Virus record (IMG/VR): IMGVR_UViG_2645727563_000007
Origin: a virus
Taxonomy: Duplodnaviria > Heunggongvirae > Uroviricota > Caudoviricetes
Length of the DNA stretch: 8,761 bases
Strand: one strand, 5' to 3'
Below the pieces are notes generated by a model that worked only from the letters and a program-made list of their open reading frames with translations, searched no databases and was not told the origin of the DNA. The translations under genes and the position numbers were made by a program. This document shows positions 512-8,761 of this stretch, piece by piece. The first letter of the stretch is position 1; the number at the start of each line of letters is the position of its first letter.

Positions 512-1069
512 ATGAACGACAGAGAATTTAGAGCGATGCTTCAGGCATCAAAAGAACGCAACAAGCACAACTCCTACGCTTACACAAACAATCCCACCAG
601 CTACGAATTACCCAAGTTCACCAAGAAAGAACGCAAAGGCATTGACGAAGTAATTCGGGCAATTACACCGAGGAGTCGTTATATGTCAACCAGAAAGAGC
701 ACCCAGAACACTATTAAAAATTATTTGGCTAACTTTGACAGTTACGAGCAGTTACCAAGCAAGCTTGATGATATTTTTATTGGGTTCTGTAGAAGTGAAG
801 GTCACCCGAAATACAACAAAAAACTATTTTATCTTCTAAAGAATCTTGATGAAATTAACTCAGCTACCGTGACAAATTATCTTCAGCGACAAGCAACCAG
901 ACTTAGCTACGAATTACCAAGCGATAAATATTGTGCATTGCTTGCTGTAATGTGTGCAAAGCTAATTGGTATTGTTGAACATCATATTGCCGTTGGGAAT
1001 ATTGAGCCAATGGAAAACGAGCAACCAGATTTCGAGTTTGACCCGTATTTAGTTACAGAGGAATTTTAA
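512..1069 (+). CDS. hypothetical protein, 185 aa (first gene of a coupled four-gene operon)
   Basis: ORF track; AAGGA (496-500) upstream of ATG 512; stop codon directly abuts the next start (TAA 1067-1069, ATG 1070). No domain recognised by eye. Confidence 0.6.
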   Translation: MNDREFRAMLQASKERNKHNSYAYTNNPTSYELPKFTKKERKGIDEVIRAITPRSRYMSTRKSTQNTIKNYLANFDSYEQLPSKLDDIFIGFCRSEGHPKYNKKLFYLLKNLDEINSATVTNYLQRQATRLSYELPSDKYCALLAVMCAKLIGIVEHHIAVGNIEPMENEQPDFEFDPYLVTEEF

Positions 1070-1348
1070 ATGAAGAAACACACTTTGACCCGTATTTCAG
1101 AGGAAGCTTTTAACGAGCTTGCCAGAATTAAACGAGCTACTAACCTGCCTCATCAGACTGTTATGCAGCTTGCAATTGCTAAAGAGGTCACTGAGTCGGA
1201 TTTACTTAAATATCCAGTCTCTAAAGGTCGTAAGCACATCCGAATTACTCAGGACGCTTTAGATACTTTGAAGGCACTTAACGGCTTTAAGATTGATATT
1301 GCCCGTCTATTGAGTCTTAAGATTCACAAGTTAGCGATGGAGGTCTGA
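1070..1348 (+). CDS. ribbon-helix-helix (CopG/Arc-like) DNA-binding protein, apparently two tandem RHH units, 92 aa
   Basis: SD AGAGGA (1057-1062) 7 nt upstream. N-terminus MKKHTLTRISEEAFNELARIKRATNLPHQTVMQLAIAKEV has the beta-strand / helix / helix pattern of CopG-type RHH proteins; a second similar unit RKHIRITQDALDTLKALNGFKIDIARLLSLKI follows. Confidence 0.5.
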   Translation: MKKHTLTRISEEAFNELARIKRATNLPHQTVMQLAIAKEVTESDLLKYPVSKGRKHIRITQDALDTLKALNGFKIDIARLLSLKIHKLAMEV

Positions 1349-1350
1349 TT

Positions 1351-1623
1351 ATGAAGCAATGGCGAGATGATATTAAACGGTTCTTTGCAACTTACTTCAT
1401 GATTAATTACGAAACAGGAATGCTTGAATGGATTGATGGCGGAGAGGTTAAGACAAGAGATGATGCTTACGGTAATCCAATGATTCGTTATGGCACTCGT
1501 GATTATTATGTGAAGTATGTCATCTGGTTTTTGCATCATGAAGTTCAGGCAACTAAAAAGATTATCTTCAGGGATGGTAATAAAAGAAATTGCCACCCAA
1601 ACAATTTACTACAGGAGATTTAA
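1351..1623 (+). CDS. HNH_3-like (homing-endonuclease-type) small protein, 90 aa; canonical catalytic His apparently substituted
   Basis: SD GGAGG (1339-1343); start 2 bp after the previous stop. C-terminal ...YVKYVIWFLHHEVQATKKIIFRDGNKRNCHPNNL resembles the HNH_3 pattern (hR.vW ... vDHiDGN..NN...NL), but the DH preceding DGN reads FR. Confidence 0.4.
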   Translation: MKQWRDDIKRFFATYFMINYETGMLEWIDGGEVKTRDDAYGNPMIRYGTRDYYVKYVIWFLHHEVQATKKIIFRDGNKRNCHPNNLLQEI

Positions 1624-1823
1624 TGTTATGTATTAAATTCGAATATTTGACAGATAAAATGATTAAGCATGTATCAGACCTGCTCATCAAAGAAGATGGT
1701 TTCGGTGATGTTTGCAATCCAAAAGATATCTTCATTCACGCCACCAGCCCAAACGAAACATTAAAAACAGCAGTTACAGCGGAATGGTTTGAACGAAATA
1801 AGACAGAATTAGGTTATTGGTAG
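1623..1823 (+). CDS. hypothetical protein, 66 aa (start reassigned to ATG 1623)
   Basis: ATG at 1623 overlaps the previous stop (TAATG); SD AGGAG (1613-1617) at 5-nt spacing. The track's longer ORF from 1590 uses a TTG start inside the upstream gene with no SD. Confidence 0.45.
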   Translation: MLCIKFEYLTDKMIKHVSDLLIKEDGFGDVCNPKDIFIHATSPNETLKTAVTAEWFERNKTELGYW

Positions 1824-2002
1824 TCCGAGACTTTAAGAGAAATTAGAAAAAAAGCTTCTCAGGCGCTCTCAATCGCATTCTAACGCAAAAAACTATCTTA
1901 TTTTAGGGTGGGTAATACCACTGTACAGGCTACCCCTGAAAAAGACTGTTTAGCTCGTTACAGAGCGATTGAGGAGGTCTGGTAAAAAGGAGATTTTAAG
2001 AA

Positions 2003-2890: not shown

Positions 2891-3601
2891 ATGGCCAACG
2901 ATATTTACATTAACGGTAAAAAGATTGATAGCTTCGGTGACTGGTCACCAACGACTGAACATCCAGCTATCACTATTCAGCGTCAAGAGCATGACAAGCG
3001 TATTAAGCTTGAGCAAGAAATCCGAATGTCACCAAAGGTAATTTCCTTTGTGACTCCTGAACCTCAAGAGATGCCCGATATCTGCAAGGGTGAATCACTA
3101 CTTGAGCTTGAAAAGAAATATTACCCACTGCTGAAAGCACAGCGTATTAAACTTGATGACGCTTACAGCAAAGTTACCTTGATGCAATCAGCTATTGAGC
3201 CGTCAGAATTTGAGATTCAGGATGAATTGTCACAGAAACCATTTGTCTATTACCAATACGAAGACAATGATGGTTTTGGTATTTATCCAGAAAGCATCCC
3301 AGCCGTGATTAGTAGTCTTCCTGATGGATATCGAATTGTGAAGATGGTTAAAGCTTCAAGGGGTGCTGGTCAGTTTGTTTACATGACCGATAAAAGCGAT
3401 GAAGAAGTCTGTGAAATTGCCAGACAGAACATCTTGGCATCACGTAACAAGCAGCTTGATAGTGCTAAGTTGTGTCTTTCAAGAGAGCTTCAGGCTATGA
3501 AAGAGCTTGTGAAAGAATATGAAGATGCTAAGAAGGTTGCTATGCAGGCTGATATTGAGCAGCTTACGAAGATTTCTCAGAAGTATAGCAAGGTACTTTA
3601 A
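2891..3601 (+). CDS. hypothetical protein, 236 aa, predicted coiled-coil C-terminal region
   Basis: ORF with SD AGAGGA (2878-2883) 7 nt upstream of ATG 2891. No family recognised. Confidence 0.6.
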   Translation: MANDIYINGKKIDSFGDWSPTTEHPAITIQRQEHDKRIKLEQEIRMSPKVISFVTPEPQEMPDICKGESLLELEKKYYPLLKAQRIKLDDAYSKVTLMQSAIEPSEFEIQDELSQKPFVYYQYEDNDGFGIYPESIPAVISSLPDGYRIVKMVKASRGAGQFVYMTDKSDEEVCEIARQNILASRNKQLDSAKLCLSRELQAMKELVKEYEDAKKVAMQADIEQLTKISQKYSKVL

Positions 3602-3926: not shown

Positions 3927-6059
3927 ATGAGCAAATTCACAGTTGATAGTTTTATCGTTGAGCTAGGCTTCAGCGAGAACGTTATTAAGGGCTTGCAAAG
4001 AGTTGAAAAGGCAGCTTTGCAGTCAGCACAAAGAATTGAAAAGAACCTAAATAAAGGTTTCAGGATTAATACAAAGCAGCTTGATAGTAATTTAACGGCT
4101 TCTTTAAAGTCAATGGAAGGGAAGATTAATAAGACCTTTGACCGTCTGGAAGCTAGAGCACGAAGCACAAAAGTTTTCCAGTTTACCACCAGATTTAATG
4201 ACACTGTTAATCCTCCAAAACAACCGAGACAGCCACGAATTAGCGGCAACAGAGCAATCACAGCAGCTTATTCAGCTAATATGACCAAGCTGAAAGGTCT
4301 TAACCCAATTGTCGAGAAATACATCAAATCTCAGTTTTACGGGCTATCTGCTAAAGCTGGGTCAATGGATAATTCAAAATTCAATGAGAAGTTGGCTCAA
4401 TTAAATGCTTCGGTCAGAGAAGCAATTGCTAAAGCCAGAGGCCATACATCCACCAGCATTAACGGTGACAGAGCAGCTAGCAGTCTTGATAATCTGTCTT
4501 TAGCGGCGGTTAAAACAGCAGGTGCATTTATCAGCTTTCAGGCTGTACTATCCGCTTATCAGCGAGTAATGGAAGTTGGCCTTCAACGTGCATCATCGGA
4601 AAGAAGTATTGATTTCGTATTCGGTGACCAAAGTACACAGGTCAAAAAGTTCATTCAAGATTTAACTCAGATTACTGGGATGGACACAACCGAAACACAA
4701 GCACAGTTTGCTTCATTTGGTGCATCTGCAAAGAACACGATGGGTCTTGAAGGGTCAGAAGAGTTATTTAAAAACCTTACAGGTTATGCTCGTTTAATGG
4801 GTCGTTCAGATGAGCAGATTCAAAGAGCATTAACCGCAGTGTCGCAGATGGCTTCTAAGGGTCAGGTGATGTCTGAGGAGCTGAAGGGGCAACTATCTGA
4901 AGCTTTACCGGGTGCTACTCAGGCATTTGCAAAGGCTTTAGGTCTGACTGAAAAACAGCTTTTCGATAAGATGAAAAATGGTGATGTTAAAGCCTCTGAT
5001 GCACTCCCTAAATTTGCTAAAGAACTTGGTTCACAGATTAATTCAAGAGGTGGCTGGAAAGCTATTCAGGACTCTACGCAGACAATGCTAGGGAACTTGA
5101 AGAATACTTGGAACAACTCACTAACGGATATTTTCAAAGGTTCTGAAGATGGTTTGCAGGACTTCACAAGAAGCTTGACCAATCTTTTAAACGCTCTTGG
5201 TGGAACTGGTAAAACATTAGGTGAAAGTTTTGGTAGCTTGATGACTGATATGTCACATGGTGTCGATTCATTGACTGATATTTCTTACAAGGTGAGAGCT
5301 TTCTTTGATGAGGTGACATTAGCTTACCGTTCACTAAATGACACTCAGAAAAAAATTGTTGACGGTTTATCTGATGGGTTAATTGATGGTTTGAAGATGC
5401 TTGCTGTAGCTGTTACTGCTCAAAAGGCTGCAAATGTAGCTGGAGGCTTGTTAAACCTTGCAAATGCTGTTACTTCATTCGGTGATGCTGTTAATAAAGC
5501 TAAAGCTGGCAAGGCTGGTTCTTCAGGTGGTGCGCTAAGTAAAGTCGGTAGAGTTGTCCTTTATGCTGAGTTGGTGAACTTTGCTCTTGATAATTTAAAC
5601 CCTGAAGCTGCTAAGAATCCGAACTTACATCAATCAGGTATTGGCACAGAAACAAACTTCAACCCTGAATACAAAGGCGATTCATCTAAACCAAACCAAA
5701 TTAATGAGGGATGGGCTAAGATTGGTAGTTCTATCGCTGACTGGTTTAATGGTGCAGCTAATAAAATTGCTAACTTCCAAGAGCCAATGAGTAACCTTGT
5801 TAATAACACACAATCAACTCCACCAGCTATCACAGGTGACATGGTTAATAGCAATGCTCAACTTGCAATGACTATTAGTGAACTATCACGCAAGGTAGAC
5901 GCTTTAACAGTAGAAGCTAAGAAGCCCTTGTCAGTTAATATCACTGGTGAAGCAACTGTTAGACCGGATGAACCAGCTTTCTTTAATTTCAGTCAATCGG
6001 CTAATGACCAGTTCACGCAGGATATGCTCTTAAGTTCAAGCTATCCAGAGGAAGAATGA
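3927..6059 (+). CDS. phage tail tape-measure-domain protein, 710 aa
   Basis: SD AAGAGGTG (3911-3918). Central segment ...QMASKGQVMSEELKGQLSEALPGATQAFAKALGLTEKQLFDKMKNGDVKASDALPKFAKELG... matches the conserved tape-measure motif. Predicted helical N-terminal part and Gly/Ala/Ser/Asn-rich C-terminal part are typical of these proteins. Confidence 0.8.
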   Translation: MSKFTVDSFIVELGFSENVIKGLQRVEKAALQSAQRIEKNLNKGFRINTKQLDSNLTASLKSMEGKINKTFDRLEARARSTKVFQFTTRFNDTVNPPKQPRQPRISGNRAITAAYSANMTKLKGLNPIVEKYIKSQFYGLSAKAGSMDNSKFNEKLAQLNASVREAIAKARGHTSTSINGDRAASSLDNLSLAAVKTAGAFISFQAVLSAYQRVMEVGLQRASSERSIDFVFGDQSTQVKKFIQDLTQITGMDTTETQAQFASFGASAKNTMGLEGSEELFKNLTGYARLMGRSDEQIQRALTAVSQMASKGQVMSEELKGQLSEALPGATQAFAKALGLTEKQLFDKMKNGDVKASDALPKFAKELGSQINSRGGWKAIQDSTQTMLGNLKNTWNNSLTDIFKGSEDGLQDFTRSLTNLLNALGGTGKTLGESFGSLMTDMSHGVDSLTDISYKVRAFFDEVTLAYRSLNDTQKKIVDGLSDGLIDGLKMLAVAVTAQKAANVAGGLLNLANAVTSFGDAVNKAKAGKAGSSGGALSKVGRVVLYAELVNFALDNLNPEAAKNPNLHQSGIGTETNFNPEYKGDSSKPNQINEGWAKIGSSIADWFNGAANKIANFQEPMSNLVNNTQSTPPAITGDMVNSNAQLAMTISELSRKVDALTVEAKKPLSVNITGEATVRPDEPAFFNFSQSANDQFTQDMLLSSSYPEEE

Positions 6060-6158: not shown

Positions 6159-6208
6159 ATTTCAAAGGCTTGGTTAAAAATGATTAAAATACACTAAGCC
6201 TTTGAAAT
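6159..6208. repeat. perfect 13-bp inverted repeat ATTTCAAAGGCTT / AAGCCTTTGAAAT (extendable to 16 bp), ending 2 nt before the next gene's SD
   Basis: Arms at 6159-6171 and 6196-6208 are exact reverse complements; three further pairs (one G.U) extend the helix; SD AAGGAG at 6211-6216. Confidence 0.55.
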
Positions 6209-6222
6209 CAAAGGAGAATTTA

Positions 6223-6996
6223 ATGATTTACTCTAATCAGATTCGTTACAGTGGCAAAGATGGCATCTATTTCCACTTAAGAGATAATGTAGATGCCTTC
6301 TTAACCTTATCAGCAACTGAAAATATGGAATTTGACAGCCCTATGCAGGTAACTACACAGAACATGCAATCAGGGCAAACCGTTACAGATAATGTGCAAA
6401 GAGCACCCAGAACAATCACTATTAGTGGTGTCGTTGTAGTTGGCTATGAAGGAAGCTTATTATTAACTCGTCAGGGTCAATTAGTAGAAAACTTCATTGA
6501 CACTCTCGAAAGCTGGCGTGACCAGAAGCAAATTATTTCGGTTATCTGTAAGGACGGAATTAAAATTGATGATTCCATTATTACGAGTTTTAAAGCCTCT
6601 AAAGATGTTGGAATTTCAAATGGTCTAAGAATCCAGCTAACTTTTCAGGAAATTAACTTCAAAGCCATTGTAGGGCAAACTGATGTTTCAGCAGCTACTG
6701 GCAAAACTGCTACCACGAATGACGGTGGTGCTACCAGTAAGAAGAATGCGGGTAACGTGACTACTGAACGCAATAACGCACCTATGCTGATGTGTCAGGA
6801 ACTGTACAGTTACTCAGCATCTGAGCTATCTGATGAAGCGCTAAGGGTCCGTAGCAATTGCTCTAAAAATGTCACGGTGAAAGATGGTGTAAGCACCTTC
6901 ACAGCCTCAGCTAATGAGCAGGCTTCAAAAGTGCTTAAGTCGGGTAATGCTTTACGGAAGTTTTCTGTGAATCCGAATAAGAAGGGCACTTATTGA
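6223..6996 (+). CDS. hypothetical protein, 257 aa; by position possibly a distal tail (Dit-like) protein
   Basis: Start set at ATG 6223 with SD AAGGAG (6211-6216) rather than the track's TTG 6202. Immediately follows the tape-measure gene, the usual position of Dit in siphovirus tail modules; sequence looks beta-rich. Function is inferred from position only. Confidence 0.55.
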
Positions 6997-7028: not shown

Positions 7029-8549
7029 TTACAGTTGATAAGCGTCAATATCCAGTAGCTCTTTATCAGCAATTTCAAAGATTGGTGACCCATCATTTAG
7101 CGGTAACGGGTTTGTAGGTATGGTGATTTCAGTGTCGTTCTGTAGCGTTACAGTTACCGAATCCTTACCCAATGTAAGCCCTTTTAGATGCTTGGACAAA
7201 ATCAACTGACACTCGACACGACCCACTTTAGTTGTCAGGTCAATATCTTTAAGCTGGGGTAGTTCCTTATCAGTGAGTGAAGCCTTACGCCTCATGTTAT
7301 CAATCGTGGTCTGTAGCTCTGTGCGCTTCTGGTTCAGTTCCTTAAGCTGAATTTTTAGTTCATCAATATCATCCATCTCAAGAAGTAGGGCGGTAGCTTT
7401 CTTGATTCTGGTTGTGACAATTTCAACCTCATGCTGTAGAGATGCAATCTCCCCCTCTGCTTCTCCATCATTCCCCACGTCAATCATTCCTAGAAAATTT
7501 TCAAGCATCCACTTATCAAACGGTTTACGCTTCAACGGAGGAACATCACAGCGACCATCAAGATGGTTATTGCACCGATAAACGCCCTGATACTTATTCT
7601 TAGTCCCTGTAGGGTGAACACTAGCCCCGCACTGACACCTAAACAGACCTTTGAAGATGTTAATCGTTAATGGATTATCACTTGCAGGTGTACGGCCTAT
7701 ACGGTTCTTACCAAGAATCTCTTGAGCTTTATTGAACGTTGAAGCATCTATAGCGGCTTCGTAGTAGTTCGGTATAGCGGGGCGGTCATTACGTTGTGAT
7801 GCTGGTAACGTGCCTATCGTTGTCTCTGACCTTAAGATGGTGCGTACAGAGTGAACACTAAACCCGTTAGCATCTTTACGGCGACTAAACGACTTTATAC
7901 CGTTGCTTTGAAGGTGACGGGCGATGTTATGCAGACTTTCACCACTTAGCAGCAGCTTGAAAATCAGTCTTACAGTCTCAGCGTGTTCATTGCACTTGAA
8001 AGTATCGGGGTCAATCCATCCGGGAACATTTCTTGTAAGACGCTGTTCACCAGCAAGGGCAAGCTTTGCACGTTGTTCCCATTTCTGACTAACACGGAAA
8101 GACTTCTGTTTACTCTCCTGATGCGCTATGTAGCTTTTAACCCGCTGAATGATTGAGATTCCTAAATCATCGGATAGAGCATCCCTTGTGTAGATTAGCC
8201 CATCCTGTAGAGTGTGAATCTCGATACCATGAGCAATAATGCGATTCATCAAGGCTTCTGTTTCAAGATGTTCAAGGCGGCCTATGCGGTCGATAGCTTC
8301 GACTAACAGAACTGTACCTTCTGAAAACTCCCCACTTTCAATACGGGAAAGCATATCCCCAAATTGCCCTGACAAGTGCTTACCTTTGTAACCGGATAGA
8401 CCCTCATCATTGAAAGATGCTACTACTTGAGCATCGCTATTCTTCTTCAACCATTGTTTGAACAGGTCGTTTTGTCGTCTGGTTGAATCTGCACCTTCAG
8501 CGCCTTGTATGGCTGAACTGTACCGAAGGTATGTAATTACGTGTCTCAT
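7029..8549 (-). CDS. large serine recombinase (serine integrase), 506 aa
   Basis: N-terminal resolvase-type catalytic domain (YLRYSSAIQ with the catalytic Ser; DEGLSGYKG; LLVEAIDRIGR), followed by a recombinase domain, a Cys-rich zinc-ribbon (FRCQCGASVHPTG...YRCNNHLDGRCD) and a C-terminal coiled-coil. SD GGGAG (revcomp of 8559-8563) 9 nt upstream of ATG. Confidence 0.9.
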   Translation of the reverse strand: MRHVITYLRYSSAIQGAEGADSTRRQNDLFKQWLKKNSDAQVVASFNDEGLSGYKGKHLSGQFGDMLSRIESGEFSEGTVLLVEAIDRIGRLEHLETEALMNRIIAHGIEIHTLQDGLIYTRDALSDDLGISIIQRVKSYIAHQESKQKSFRVSQKWEQRAKLALAGEQRLTRNVPGWIDPDTFKCNEHAETVRLIFKLLLSGESLHNIARHLQSNGIKSFSRRKDANGFSVHSVRTILRSETTIGTLPASQRNDRPAIPNYYEAAIDASTFNKAQEILGKNRIGRTPASDNPLTINIFKGLFRCQCGASVHPTGTKNKYQGVYRCNNHLDGRCDVPPLKRKPFDKWMLENFLGMIDVGNDGEAEGEIASLQHEVEIVTTRIKKATALLLEMDDIDELKIQLKELNQKRTELQTTIDNMRRKASLTDKELPQLKDIDLTTKVGRVECQLILSKHLKGLTLGKDSVTVTLQNDTEITIPTNPLPLNDGSPIFEIADKELLDIDAYQL

Positions 8550-8639
8550 GGTGATAAACTCCCATGCAATTGATTCTCATTTAAAGATGAACTTATAAAC
8601 GTTATGGCTAATGCTACAATGCCGAATAGCTACAATACA

Positions 8640-8761
8640 ATGACCCTTGATTTACCTCGCCGCTTCCCCTGGCCGACGTTACTTTCGGTCTGCATTCATG
8701 GTGCTGTTGTGGCGGGTCTGCTCTATACCTCGGTACATCAGGTTATTGAACTACCTGCGCC
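8640..8761 (+). CDS. tonB: TonB (energy transducer), N-terminal 40 codons; partial, continues beyond the window
   Basis: Translation MTLDLPRRFPWPTLLSVCIHGAVVAGLLYTSVHQVIELPA is recognised as the N-terminal signal-anchor region of Escherichia-type TonB; GC content is visibly higher than the upstream intergenic DNA. Confidence 0.9.
   Translation, partial: MTLDLPRRFPWPTLLSVCIHGAVVAGLLYTSVHQVIELPA

Follow-up and report, generated by a model that had tools for sequence, protein, structure and literature searches.

A truncated HNH_3-like protein without the catalytic histidine in an Escherichia coli island carrying Felixounavirus-like tail genes

The operon and its island

The window analyzed here, 8,761 nt of the IMG/VR virus record IMGVR_UViG_2645727563_000007, carries a row of four small ORFs, two tail genes, and a large serine recombinase gene (Table 1). 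The third of the small ORFs encodes the 90-residue HNH-like protein that is the subject of this work, hereafter HNHL (MKQWRDDIKRFFATYFMINYETGMLEWIDGGEVKTRDDAYGNPMIRYGTRDYYVKYVIWFLHHEVQATKKIIFRDGNKRNCHPNNLLQEI). The four ORFs are closely packed, with no gaps between them, and are preceded by a putative promoter (434-462), a site recognized by its match to the consensus. The stop codon TGA of the upstream 92-aa ORF occupies 1346-1348, and the HNHL stop codon and the ATG of the next ORF overlap in TAATG within 1620-1625. Translational coupling of HNHL is thus indicated by the placement of its ribosome-binding site in the upstream ORF and by the stop/start overlaps. This is the first operon of the island described below, probably with an early or regulatory function.

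Table 1. Positions of genes, signals, and HNHL sequence elements in the window
Feature	Position	Strand	Remarks
185-aa ORF	512..1069	+	First in operon; function unassigned, hyperdiverse; promoter-like site 434-462 in front
92-aa ORF	1070..1348	+	Same operon as HNHL, upstream; ribbon-helix-helix-like by eye
GGAGG ribosome-binding site	1339..1343	+	Read directly; 7 nt 5' of ATG, within the upstream ORF near its end
HNHL ORF (Phe type), 90 aa	1351..1623	+	Truncated, catalytically degenerate HNH_3-like; TAA overlaps next start
HNHL residues 1-53	1351..1509	+	N-terminal helix and beta-sheet; counterpart is the N-terminal part of I-HmuI and HNH-AP2 enzymes
H62-H63	1534..1539	+	End of helix 54-63; H63 is the family 'HG' His, H62 not conserved
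I72-F73	1564..1569	+	Replaces I-HmuI D74-H75 (metal ligand, general base); invariant in 33 alleles
D75-G76-N77	1573..1581	+	Hairpin-loop motif; kept, invariant
N85-L86	1603..1608	+	Structural Asn kept (I-HmuI N87, positions the His); invariant
66-aa ORF	1623..1823	+	Downstream of HNHL; start overlaps HNHL stop (TAATG); variable slot
21-nt remnant	1826..1846	+	Identical to His-type 3' end (RDFKRN*); place of the His-type gene in sister islands
Tape measure protein	3927..6059		
Dit-like protein	6202..6996		Homolog of Bas63 gp18 'tube initiator'
Large serine recombinase	7029..8549	-	Adjoins tonB

The 185-aa gene heading the operon shows extreme diversity, with 1089 clusters (90% identity; E. coli, Shigella, and Salmonella; all 'hypothetical'), in contrast to the tightly conserved HNH-like gene of the same operon. 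Its product gave no family match, and its AlphaFold model, built on a shallow alignment, was discarded at a pLDDT of 42.9. The 92-aa ORF product showed weak DndE/antitoxin matches. The 66-aa ORF occupies a hypervariable slot 3' of the HNHL gene (1623-1823 in the window; 8240-8659, 1914-2382, and 5473-5829 in loci L014, L011, and L001, respectively), which in other islands is filled by a homolog of the 66-aa protein of 40% identity, in one version accompanied by an additional small gene, by an HTH-bearing protein of 118-128 aa, or by other cassettes. The 118-128-aa protein has a weak C-terminal helix-turn-helix match (HTH_28, E=0.003), and in the database protein P0009 an HNH-like N terminus is fused to this HTH protein.

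At its end, the window reaches into the 5' part of tonB (8638-8761), and in related E. coli loci the island is situated between yciI and tonB, spanning about 11.6 kb in locus L042. It begins with a variable left cargo and continues with genes for a Dam methylase, the 185-aa and 92-aa proteins, and the HNH-like protein and with a small variable gene, followed by genes for proteins of 107, 236, and 67 aa, the tape measure protein, the Dit-like protein, and the large serine recombinase. Capsid, terminase, replication, or known defense genes were not recognized in the window. Sister islands with the same gene order carry other serine recombinases (28-34% identical; for instance L048, 13465-15108) and occupy other sites, one of which adjoins wrbA and lies between ymdF and wrbA in strain M19.

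The tail genes connect the island with Felixounavirus phages. Residues 13-185 of the Dit-like protein are nearly identical to Bas63 gp18, with only the C-terminal baseplate-contacting extension diverging. At the nucleotide level, 212 phage records matched, almost all of them Felixounavirus-like, and positions 6250-6756 share 96-98.6% identity with many of these. Between the tape measure protein and Bas63 gp17 the identity amounts to 30%, with the N terminus conserved. The island is therefore in recent DNA exchange with lytic Felix-O1-like phages. A second link between the islands and Felixounavirus is a full-length HNH_3+AP2 gene at the left end of the L042 island (5416-5940, minus strand), the product of which shares 47% identity with the HNH endonuclease of FelixO1 and aligns with the 90-aa HNHL from residue 2 on. 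In FelixO1, the endonuclease gene adjoins the phage DNA polymerase gene. We suggest that the island targets Felix-O1-like phages, either as a satellite or by interfering with tail assembly. A description of such a Felixounavirus satellite or of this island family was not present in the literature searched. Satellites of E. coli in which tape-measure and baseplate-hub genes have been described possess capsid genes and RepA_N, with Justusliebigvirus as presumed helpers (PMC10448857); identity of the island with these satellites was considered and rejected, as they constitute a different family.

HNH_3 homology, fold, and active site of HNHL

The Pfam profile HNH_3 (PF13392) matched HNHL at E=7.7e-5 and 22.7 bits, just below the gathering score of 24.8, and PHROG 'HNH endonuclease' families matched at E=6e-5. 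The Pfam match pairs HNHL residues 52-86 with positions 1-36 of the 46-position profile; for an intact relative it extends to position 45. An exhaustive phmmer search of 1.84 billion representative proteins retrieved few relatives, among them P0011 (95 aa, 41% identity, E=5e-27) and several proteins of about 35% identity with the same motif. P0011 itself exceeds the Pfam threshold with 33.4 bits, and a profile built from HNHL and its relatives matched HNH_3+AP2 endonucleases of 160-180 aa with a best E value of 1e-13. Given the score and identity of P0011 and this profile match, the HNH_3 homology of HNHL is secure despite the subthreshold score. The resemblance that the preliminary description had seen by eye is thus beyond chance.

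The same description had remarked that small HNH proteins of phages normally accompany terminase genes and that none is present here. Terminase genes are indeed absent from the ORFs of the window, but the expectation fits PF01844, the family of the terminase-adjacent HNH proteins that cos phages encode (HK97 gp74 type), and not HNH_3. The cos-phage proteins are likewise small, phage-associated His-Me finger proteins, and they are active nucleases; they differ from HNHL in Pfam family, HNHL having no terminase nearby and no PF01844 match at E<=1. HNH_3 is a family of free-standing homing endonucleases with NUMOD, HTH, or AP2 modules (PMC5714182). A second Pfam domain was not detected in HNHL, which thereby lacks a sequence-specific DNA-binding module of the AP2, NUMOD, or HTH type. 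Using HNH-AP2 proteins as tblastn queries, we found no AP2 remnant anywhere in the window, and 3' of HNHL no AP2, HTH, helix, or other endonuclease remnant was present in any frame. Scans with NCBIfam, PADLOC, and Rfam and for tRNAs yielded nothing relevant.

An AlphaFold2 model of HNHL based on 31 sequences was confident (pLDDT 94.7, pTM 0.86) and contains the fold of the I-HmuI N-terminal nuclease domain. Compared with predicted viral structures, the model gave 60 matches at E<=0.001, nearly all of them phage HNH or homing endonucleases. The next-best structural matches were Smad MH1 and NFI, DNA-binding domains derived from the His-Me finger fold (PMC5714182). A profile search of the PDB ranked I-HmuI first (E=0.15). 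A single-sequence phmmer search of the PDB yielded antibody and xylanase matches only, which were dismissed as spurious.

In I-HmuI, the His of the 'DH' motif acts as general base, the preceding Asp and an Asn of the following helix bind the metal, and Asn87 positions the His (PMC2816704), in line with the general active-site rule for the superfamily of His-Me fingers (PMC5714182). Three independent alignments, two with MAFFT (HNHL with the FelixO1 HNH-AP2 enzyme, 12 other HNH_3 proteins, and I-HmuI) and one of a HMMER profile with 1u3e, gave a single register, in which I72-F73-R74-D75-G76-N77 of HNHL corresponds to D74-H75-K76-D77-G78-N79 of I-HmuI. The metal ligand D74 is thus matched by I72 and the general base H75 by F73, while the hairpin loop K76-D77-G78-N79 is matched by R74-D75-G76-N77. 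The helix metal ligand N96 has no counterpart: it would fall at residue 94, and the chain ends at I90, 5 residues past N85, whereas in intact relatives the conserved Asn follows 9 residues past this position. Accordingly, a 3-residue turn is all that the model contains in the way of helix beyond residue 63. The first His of the family ('HR') is replaced by K55-Y56. HNHL therefore lacks the general-base His, a preceding D/E/H ligand, and the metal-ligand helix, and it keeps the Asn of the HNH motif and the DGN loop. The by-eye reading of FR-DGN in place of DH-x-DGN was right, and the loss goes further than this earlier observation, as the Asp and the metal-ligand helix are gone too. Since general base, metal-ligand Asp, and ligand helix are lost, HNHL should be unable to cleave DNA by the family mechanism, and its nuclease activity has in all likelihood been lost. 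The suggestion of an inactive HNH derivative agrees with these findings, the fold and the structural Asn being retained in the absence of all three catalytic elements.

An HH pair, placed about 14 residues upstream in the preliminary description and considered there as a possible substitute active site, does exist, albeit at a distance of 10-11 residues from F73. In the alignments, H63 falls on the His of the 'H-G-x-x-P' motif. As catalytically intact HNH-AP2 enzymes conserve this His too, H63 is not a compensating novelty. H62 is replaced by Tyr in P0011 and is variable in other relatives lacking the catalytic His. On these alignment grounds, catalytic rescue by H62/H63 was rejected. A nuclease of another kind, with H62/H63 as active site or with the missing helix supplied in trans by a partner, seems very improbable to us. 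In its favor, neither H62 nor H63 varies among the Phe-type alleles, HpyAV kept about 1% activity upon replacement of its general-base His (PMC2816704), PacI-type enzymes use Tyr for His (PMC5714182), and some distant relatives have a Tyr at this position, but Phe is neither base nor nucleophile, both metal ligands are absent (I72; no helix), and the downstream gene that might encode a partner varies between islands.

Conservation, allele types, and distribution

The integrity of the gene was assessed in 33 alleles, comprising the window and 32 full-length copies from metagenomes, IMG/VR, Escherichia albertii, and an E. coli genome. At the nucleotide level, 23 of the sequences are distinct, and 13 variants exist at the protein level; stops and indels are absent throughout. 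The mean pN/pS was 0.147, pN being biased downward by retrieval of the loci via 8-residue query words, and 16 nonsynonymous stood against 17 synonymous variants, compared with a neutral expectation of 81% nonsynonymous (binomial p=2e-5). H62, H63, I72, F73, DGN, and NL are invariant, and replacements are mostly singletons or confined to the last three residues. With no stops or indels, a pN/pS of 0.15, a ribosome-binding site, and overlaps with its neighbors, HNHL is not a pseudogene.

Across 23 sequences (the window and 22 related loci), the block of 96-100% identity coincides with the HNHL ORF, with flanks at 60-85%. A reading of this extreme conservation as unique to the ORF was rejected, since the pattern is in part due to ascertainment, given the existence of a second class at 41% identity. 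Conservation within the class that carries Phe at the general-base position (Phe type) still holds: an unbiased search at the nucleotide level across 5,426 complete E. coli genomes identified 67 copies, all full length and with 97.4-99.6% nucleotide identity. A scan of representative genomes added only one further locus, in E. albertii, and the two IMG/VR matches represent the same island cut at the HNHL gene. In public protein data, the Phe type forms essentially one intact 90% cluster of 189 member sequences plus a rare variant of about 85% identity, as opposed to about 15 frameshifted sequences. The frameshifts occur at runs of T5 (1528-1532) and A5 (1555-1559), and a few deletion fusions exist as well. 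The T5 and A5 frameshift alleles share one alternative C terminus (…LSSGMVIKEIATQTIY…). The island of strain E8 (L001) lacks any HNH-like gene. HNHL is thus not absolutely required, considering the E8 island and the occurrence of frameshifted and deletion-fusion alleles.

P0011, from a cluster with 334 members in E. coli and Shigella, represents the second class, the His type, which is annotated as 'HNH endonuclease' and has His at the general-base position (IIHRNGN) in place of the Phe of HNHL. Both types share the truncation, Ile for Asp, and Lys-Tyr for 'HR'. The His type was found in 226 of the 5,426 complete E. coli genomes and the operon region overall in 293 (about 5%). It resides in the same island family and operon as the Phe type, but 3' of the 66-aa gene, whereas the Phe type lies 5' of it. 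The two types never occurred together in 38 island loci, 36 of which carried the Phe type, one the His type, and one (strain E8) neither. In comparison of the window with L042, both behave as ORF-precise cassettes at two neighboring gene junctions. The Phe-type cassette, absent from the respective L042 junction, consists of the ORF plus 2 nt, with overlapping stop/start signals re-formed at both ends. The DNA after the 21-nt scar at 1826-1846 is intergenic and about 97% identical to L042. This scar shows the two allele types to replace each other at neighboring junctions. An ORF-sized presence/absence polymorphism between otherwise collinear genomes, as characteristic of homing cassettes, is thus present, but HNHL has no active site able to cut the empty allele. 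From the adjacent junctions, the common operon, and the lack of co-occurrence, we infer that the two types may be functionally equivalent irrespective of the His; if they do the same job, this job in the island would need no His. The His type might still be a weak nuclease, so that the types need not be equivalent.

HNHL had been called an orphan, a misleading designation: the gene is nearly constant in an island family that about 5% of complete E. coli genomes harbor, and one sister island also contains a full-length HNH_3+AP2 gene. Outside of this family, tblastn searches with both allele types against 50,697 phage records retrieved no close homolog. The best matches in these records were 29-35% identical, the Phe type as query giving E>=0.04 and the His type E=7e-4; HNH-AP2 endonucleases of Felixounavirus are 29-33% identical to HNHL. 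Relatives lacking the catalytic His include 290-aa proteins with two tandem domains (LFRDGD and A/GYRDGN) in phage-like contigs (L043, 8001-8873) and a 99-aa protein (APRDGN) of the T5-like Aeromonas phage AhSzq-1, where its gene is flanked by D2 and D3 (L047, 1438-1737). The genes of the 290-aa tandem proteins adjoin a canonical HNH_3 gene. Judging by the phage-like contigs and AhSzq-1, the degenerate HNH_3 form recurs, albeit rarely.

Possible roles of HNHL

HNHL is a non-catalytic, truncated branch of the known HNH_3 group. Compared with the free-standing endonucleases of this group, I-HmuI and HNH-AP2 enzymes such as FelixO1 NP_944955, it is about half as long, lacks AP2, HTH, and NUMOD modules, has Ile-Phe for Asp-His, and stops before the metal-binding helix. 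A close likeness is the sister allele P0011, equally truncated and encoded in the same operon in a mutually exclusive manner, but, unlike HNHL, with the His kept. Both loss of catalytic residues and purifying selection, the marks of domestication, were found in HNHL. We therefore favor, with moderate confidence, an explanation in which HNHL is an N-terminal HNH_3 domain that is maintained by selection, has been domesticated, and acts without cutting. It comprises no more than the N-terminal part of an HNH_3 homing endonuclease of the I-HmuI/HNH-AP2 type, cut off after the second beta-strand of the beta-beta-alpha-metal motif, and its gene belongs to the first operon of the integrative island, which is about 11.6 kb long and exchanges DNA with Felixounavirus phages. 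A non-cutting role in binding DNA or protein is most likely because the cutting residues were lost and yet the gene was kept by selection. HNHL may bind DNA via the retained N-terminal beta-sheet surface and act as a regulator or as a site-occupying protector; alternatively, it may bind a phage or island protein. According to Shen et al. in 2004, the N-terminal beta-sheet of I-HmuI is reportedly a DNA-binding surface common to I-PpoI. Against DNA binding count the missing specificity module and the only mildly basic character of HNHL (predicted pI 8.7).

By analogy to domesticated domains, we hypothesize that a DNA-binding or regulatory role is plausible. In Smad MH1 and NFI, as proposed here for HNHL, a degraded His-Me finger was recruited as DNA-binding domain (PMC5714182). 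Smad MH1 differs in being eukaryotic and zinc stabilized, in belonging to a different superfamily subgroup, and in having no detectable sequence similarity to HNHL. CapR, encoded by the Vibrio cholerae satellite PLE, is a domesticated T5orf172 homing endonuclease that represses capsid genes of the helper phage (PMC8096241, PMC10448857). It resembles HNHL as an endonuclease-derived gene product of a phage-associated island that is related to endonucleases of the phage group exchanging DNA with the island. It is, however, T5orf172/GIY-YIG-like and not a His-Me finger, and it retains its DNA-binding domain and has demonstrated repressor activity.

Binding of a protein instead of DNA, for example as decoy or inhibitor of a phage or island partner of the HNH_3 nuclease domain, is rather unlikely in our view. 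It would be consistent with the mildly basic character and the lack of a sequence-specific module, and with an island that exchanges DNA with phages carrying HNH-AP2 endonucleases 29-33% identical to HNHL and that in L042 harbors a full-length HNH-AP2 gene itself. Against a protein binder counts that HNH_3 homing endonucleases, as seen in the I-HmuI structure, are extended monomers on DNA and not oligomers. MH1 as a non-catalytic His-Me finger kept DNA binding, although the Enpp nuclease-like domain has been described as binding substrate (PMC5714182).

Distinctly unlikely, we think, is a decaying selfish cassette, that is, a free-standing homing endonuclease late in a cycle of invasion, fixation, degeneration, and loss, with no function in the island. 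The truncation and loss of catalytic residues, the ORF-precise presence/absence at two gene junctions with the 21-nt scar, and the frameshift alleles, deletion fusions, and E8 island without the gene would be expected of such an element. Decay is at odds, though, with the pN/pS of 0.147 (p=2e-5) and the invariant motif residues, with full length in 67/67 complete-genome copies, and with a confidently folded model and one copy per island kept in two allelic forms. Moreover, the 189 intact sequences outnumber about 15 frameshifted ones, all of which shift at homopolymers, where sequencing errors are common.

Within the favored explanation of a domesticated, non-cutting domain, a more far-reaching proposal appears doubtful to us, namely that the truncated HNH_3 gene is a hallmark of an undescribed Felixounavirus-associated E. 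coli island family, either a satellite or a defense element that interferes with tails, and recognizes phage DNA or proteins without cutting. If so, HNHL could sense infection, shield the island from phage HNH-AP2 nucleases, or reprogram phage gene expression, and the two allelic forms would reflect an arms race with the phage.

Publicly, HNHL is annotated as 'HNH endonuclease' in hundreds of E. coli genomes, a misleading name because the protein lacks every catalytic element. A conserved, truncated HNH_3 branch without the His would be a further case of a non-catalytic His-Me finger domain, in a setting of island versus lytic phage in which domesticated endonuclease domains are known as regulators or weapons. 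The finding also flags an island family with tail-initiation genes near-identical to those of Felixounavirus, and the island may be of more interest than the HNHL gene itself. The 236-aa ORF of the window (2891-3601) has RefSeq homologs named 'transposase', a name that looks unsupported, as no Pfam, PHROG, NCBIfam, or PADLOC match was obtained. The non-coding gap of 560 nt upstream of it (2327-2890) contains a promoter-like site close to the consensus (2428-2456, 11 of 12). It also has a hairpin resembling a terminator (2658-2680) and, just 5' of the 236-aa ORF, a 22-nt inverted repeat (2789-2810 and 2845-2866, 91% complementary). This gap could be a regulatory or origin region.
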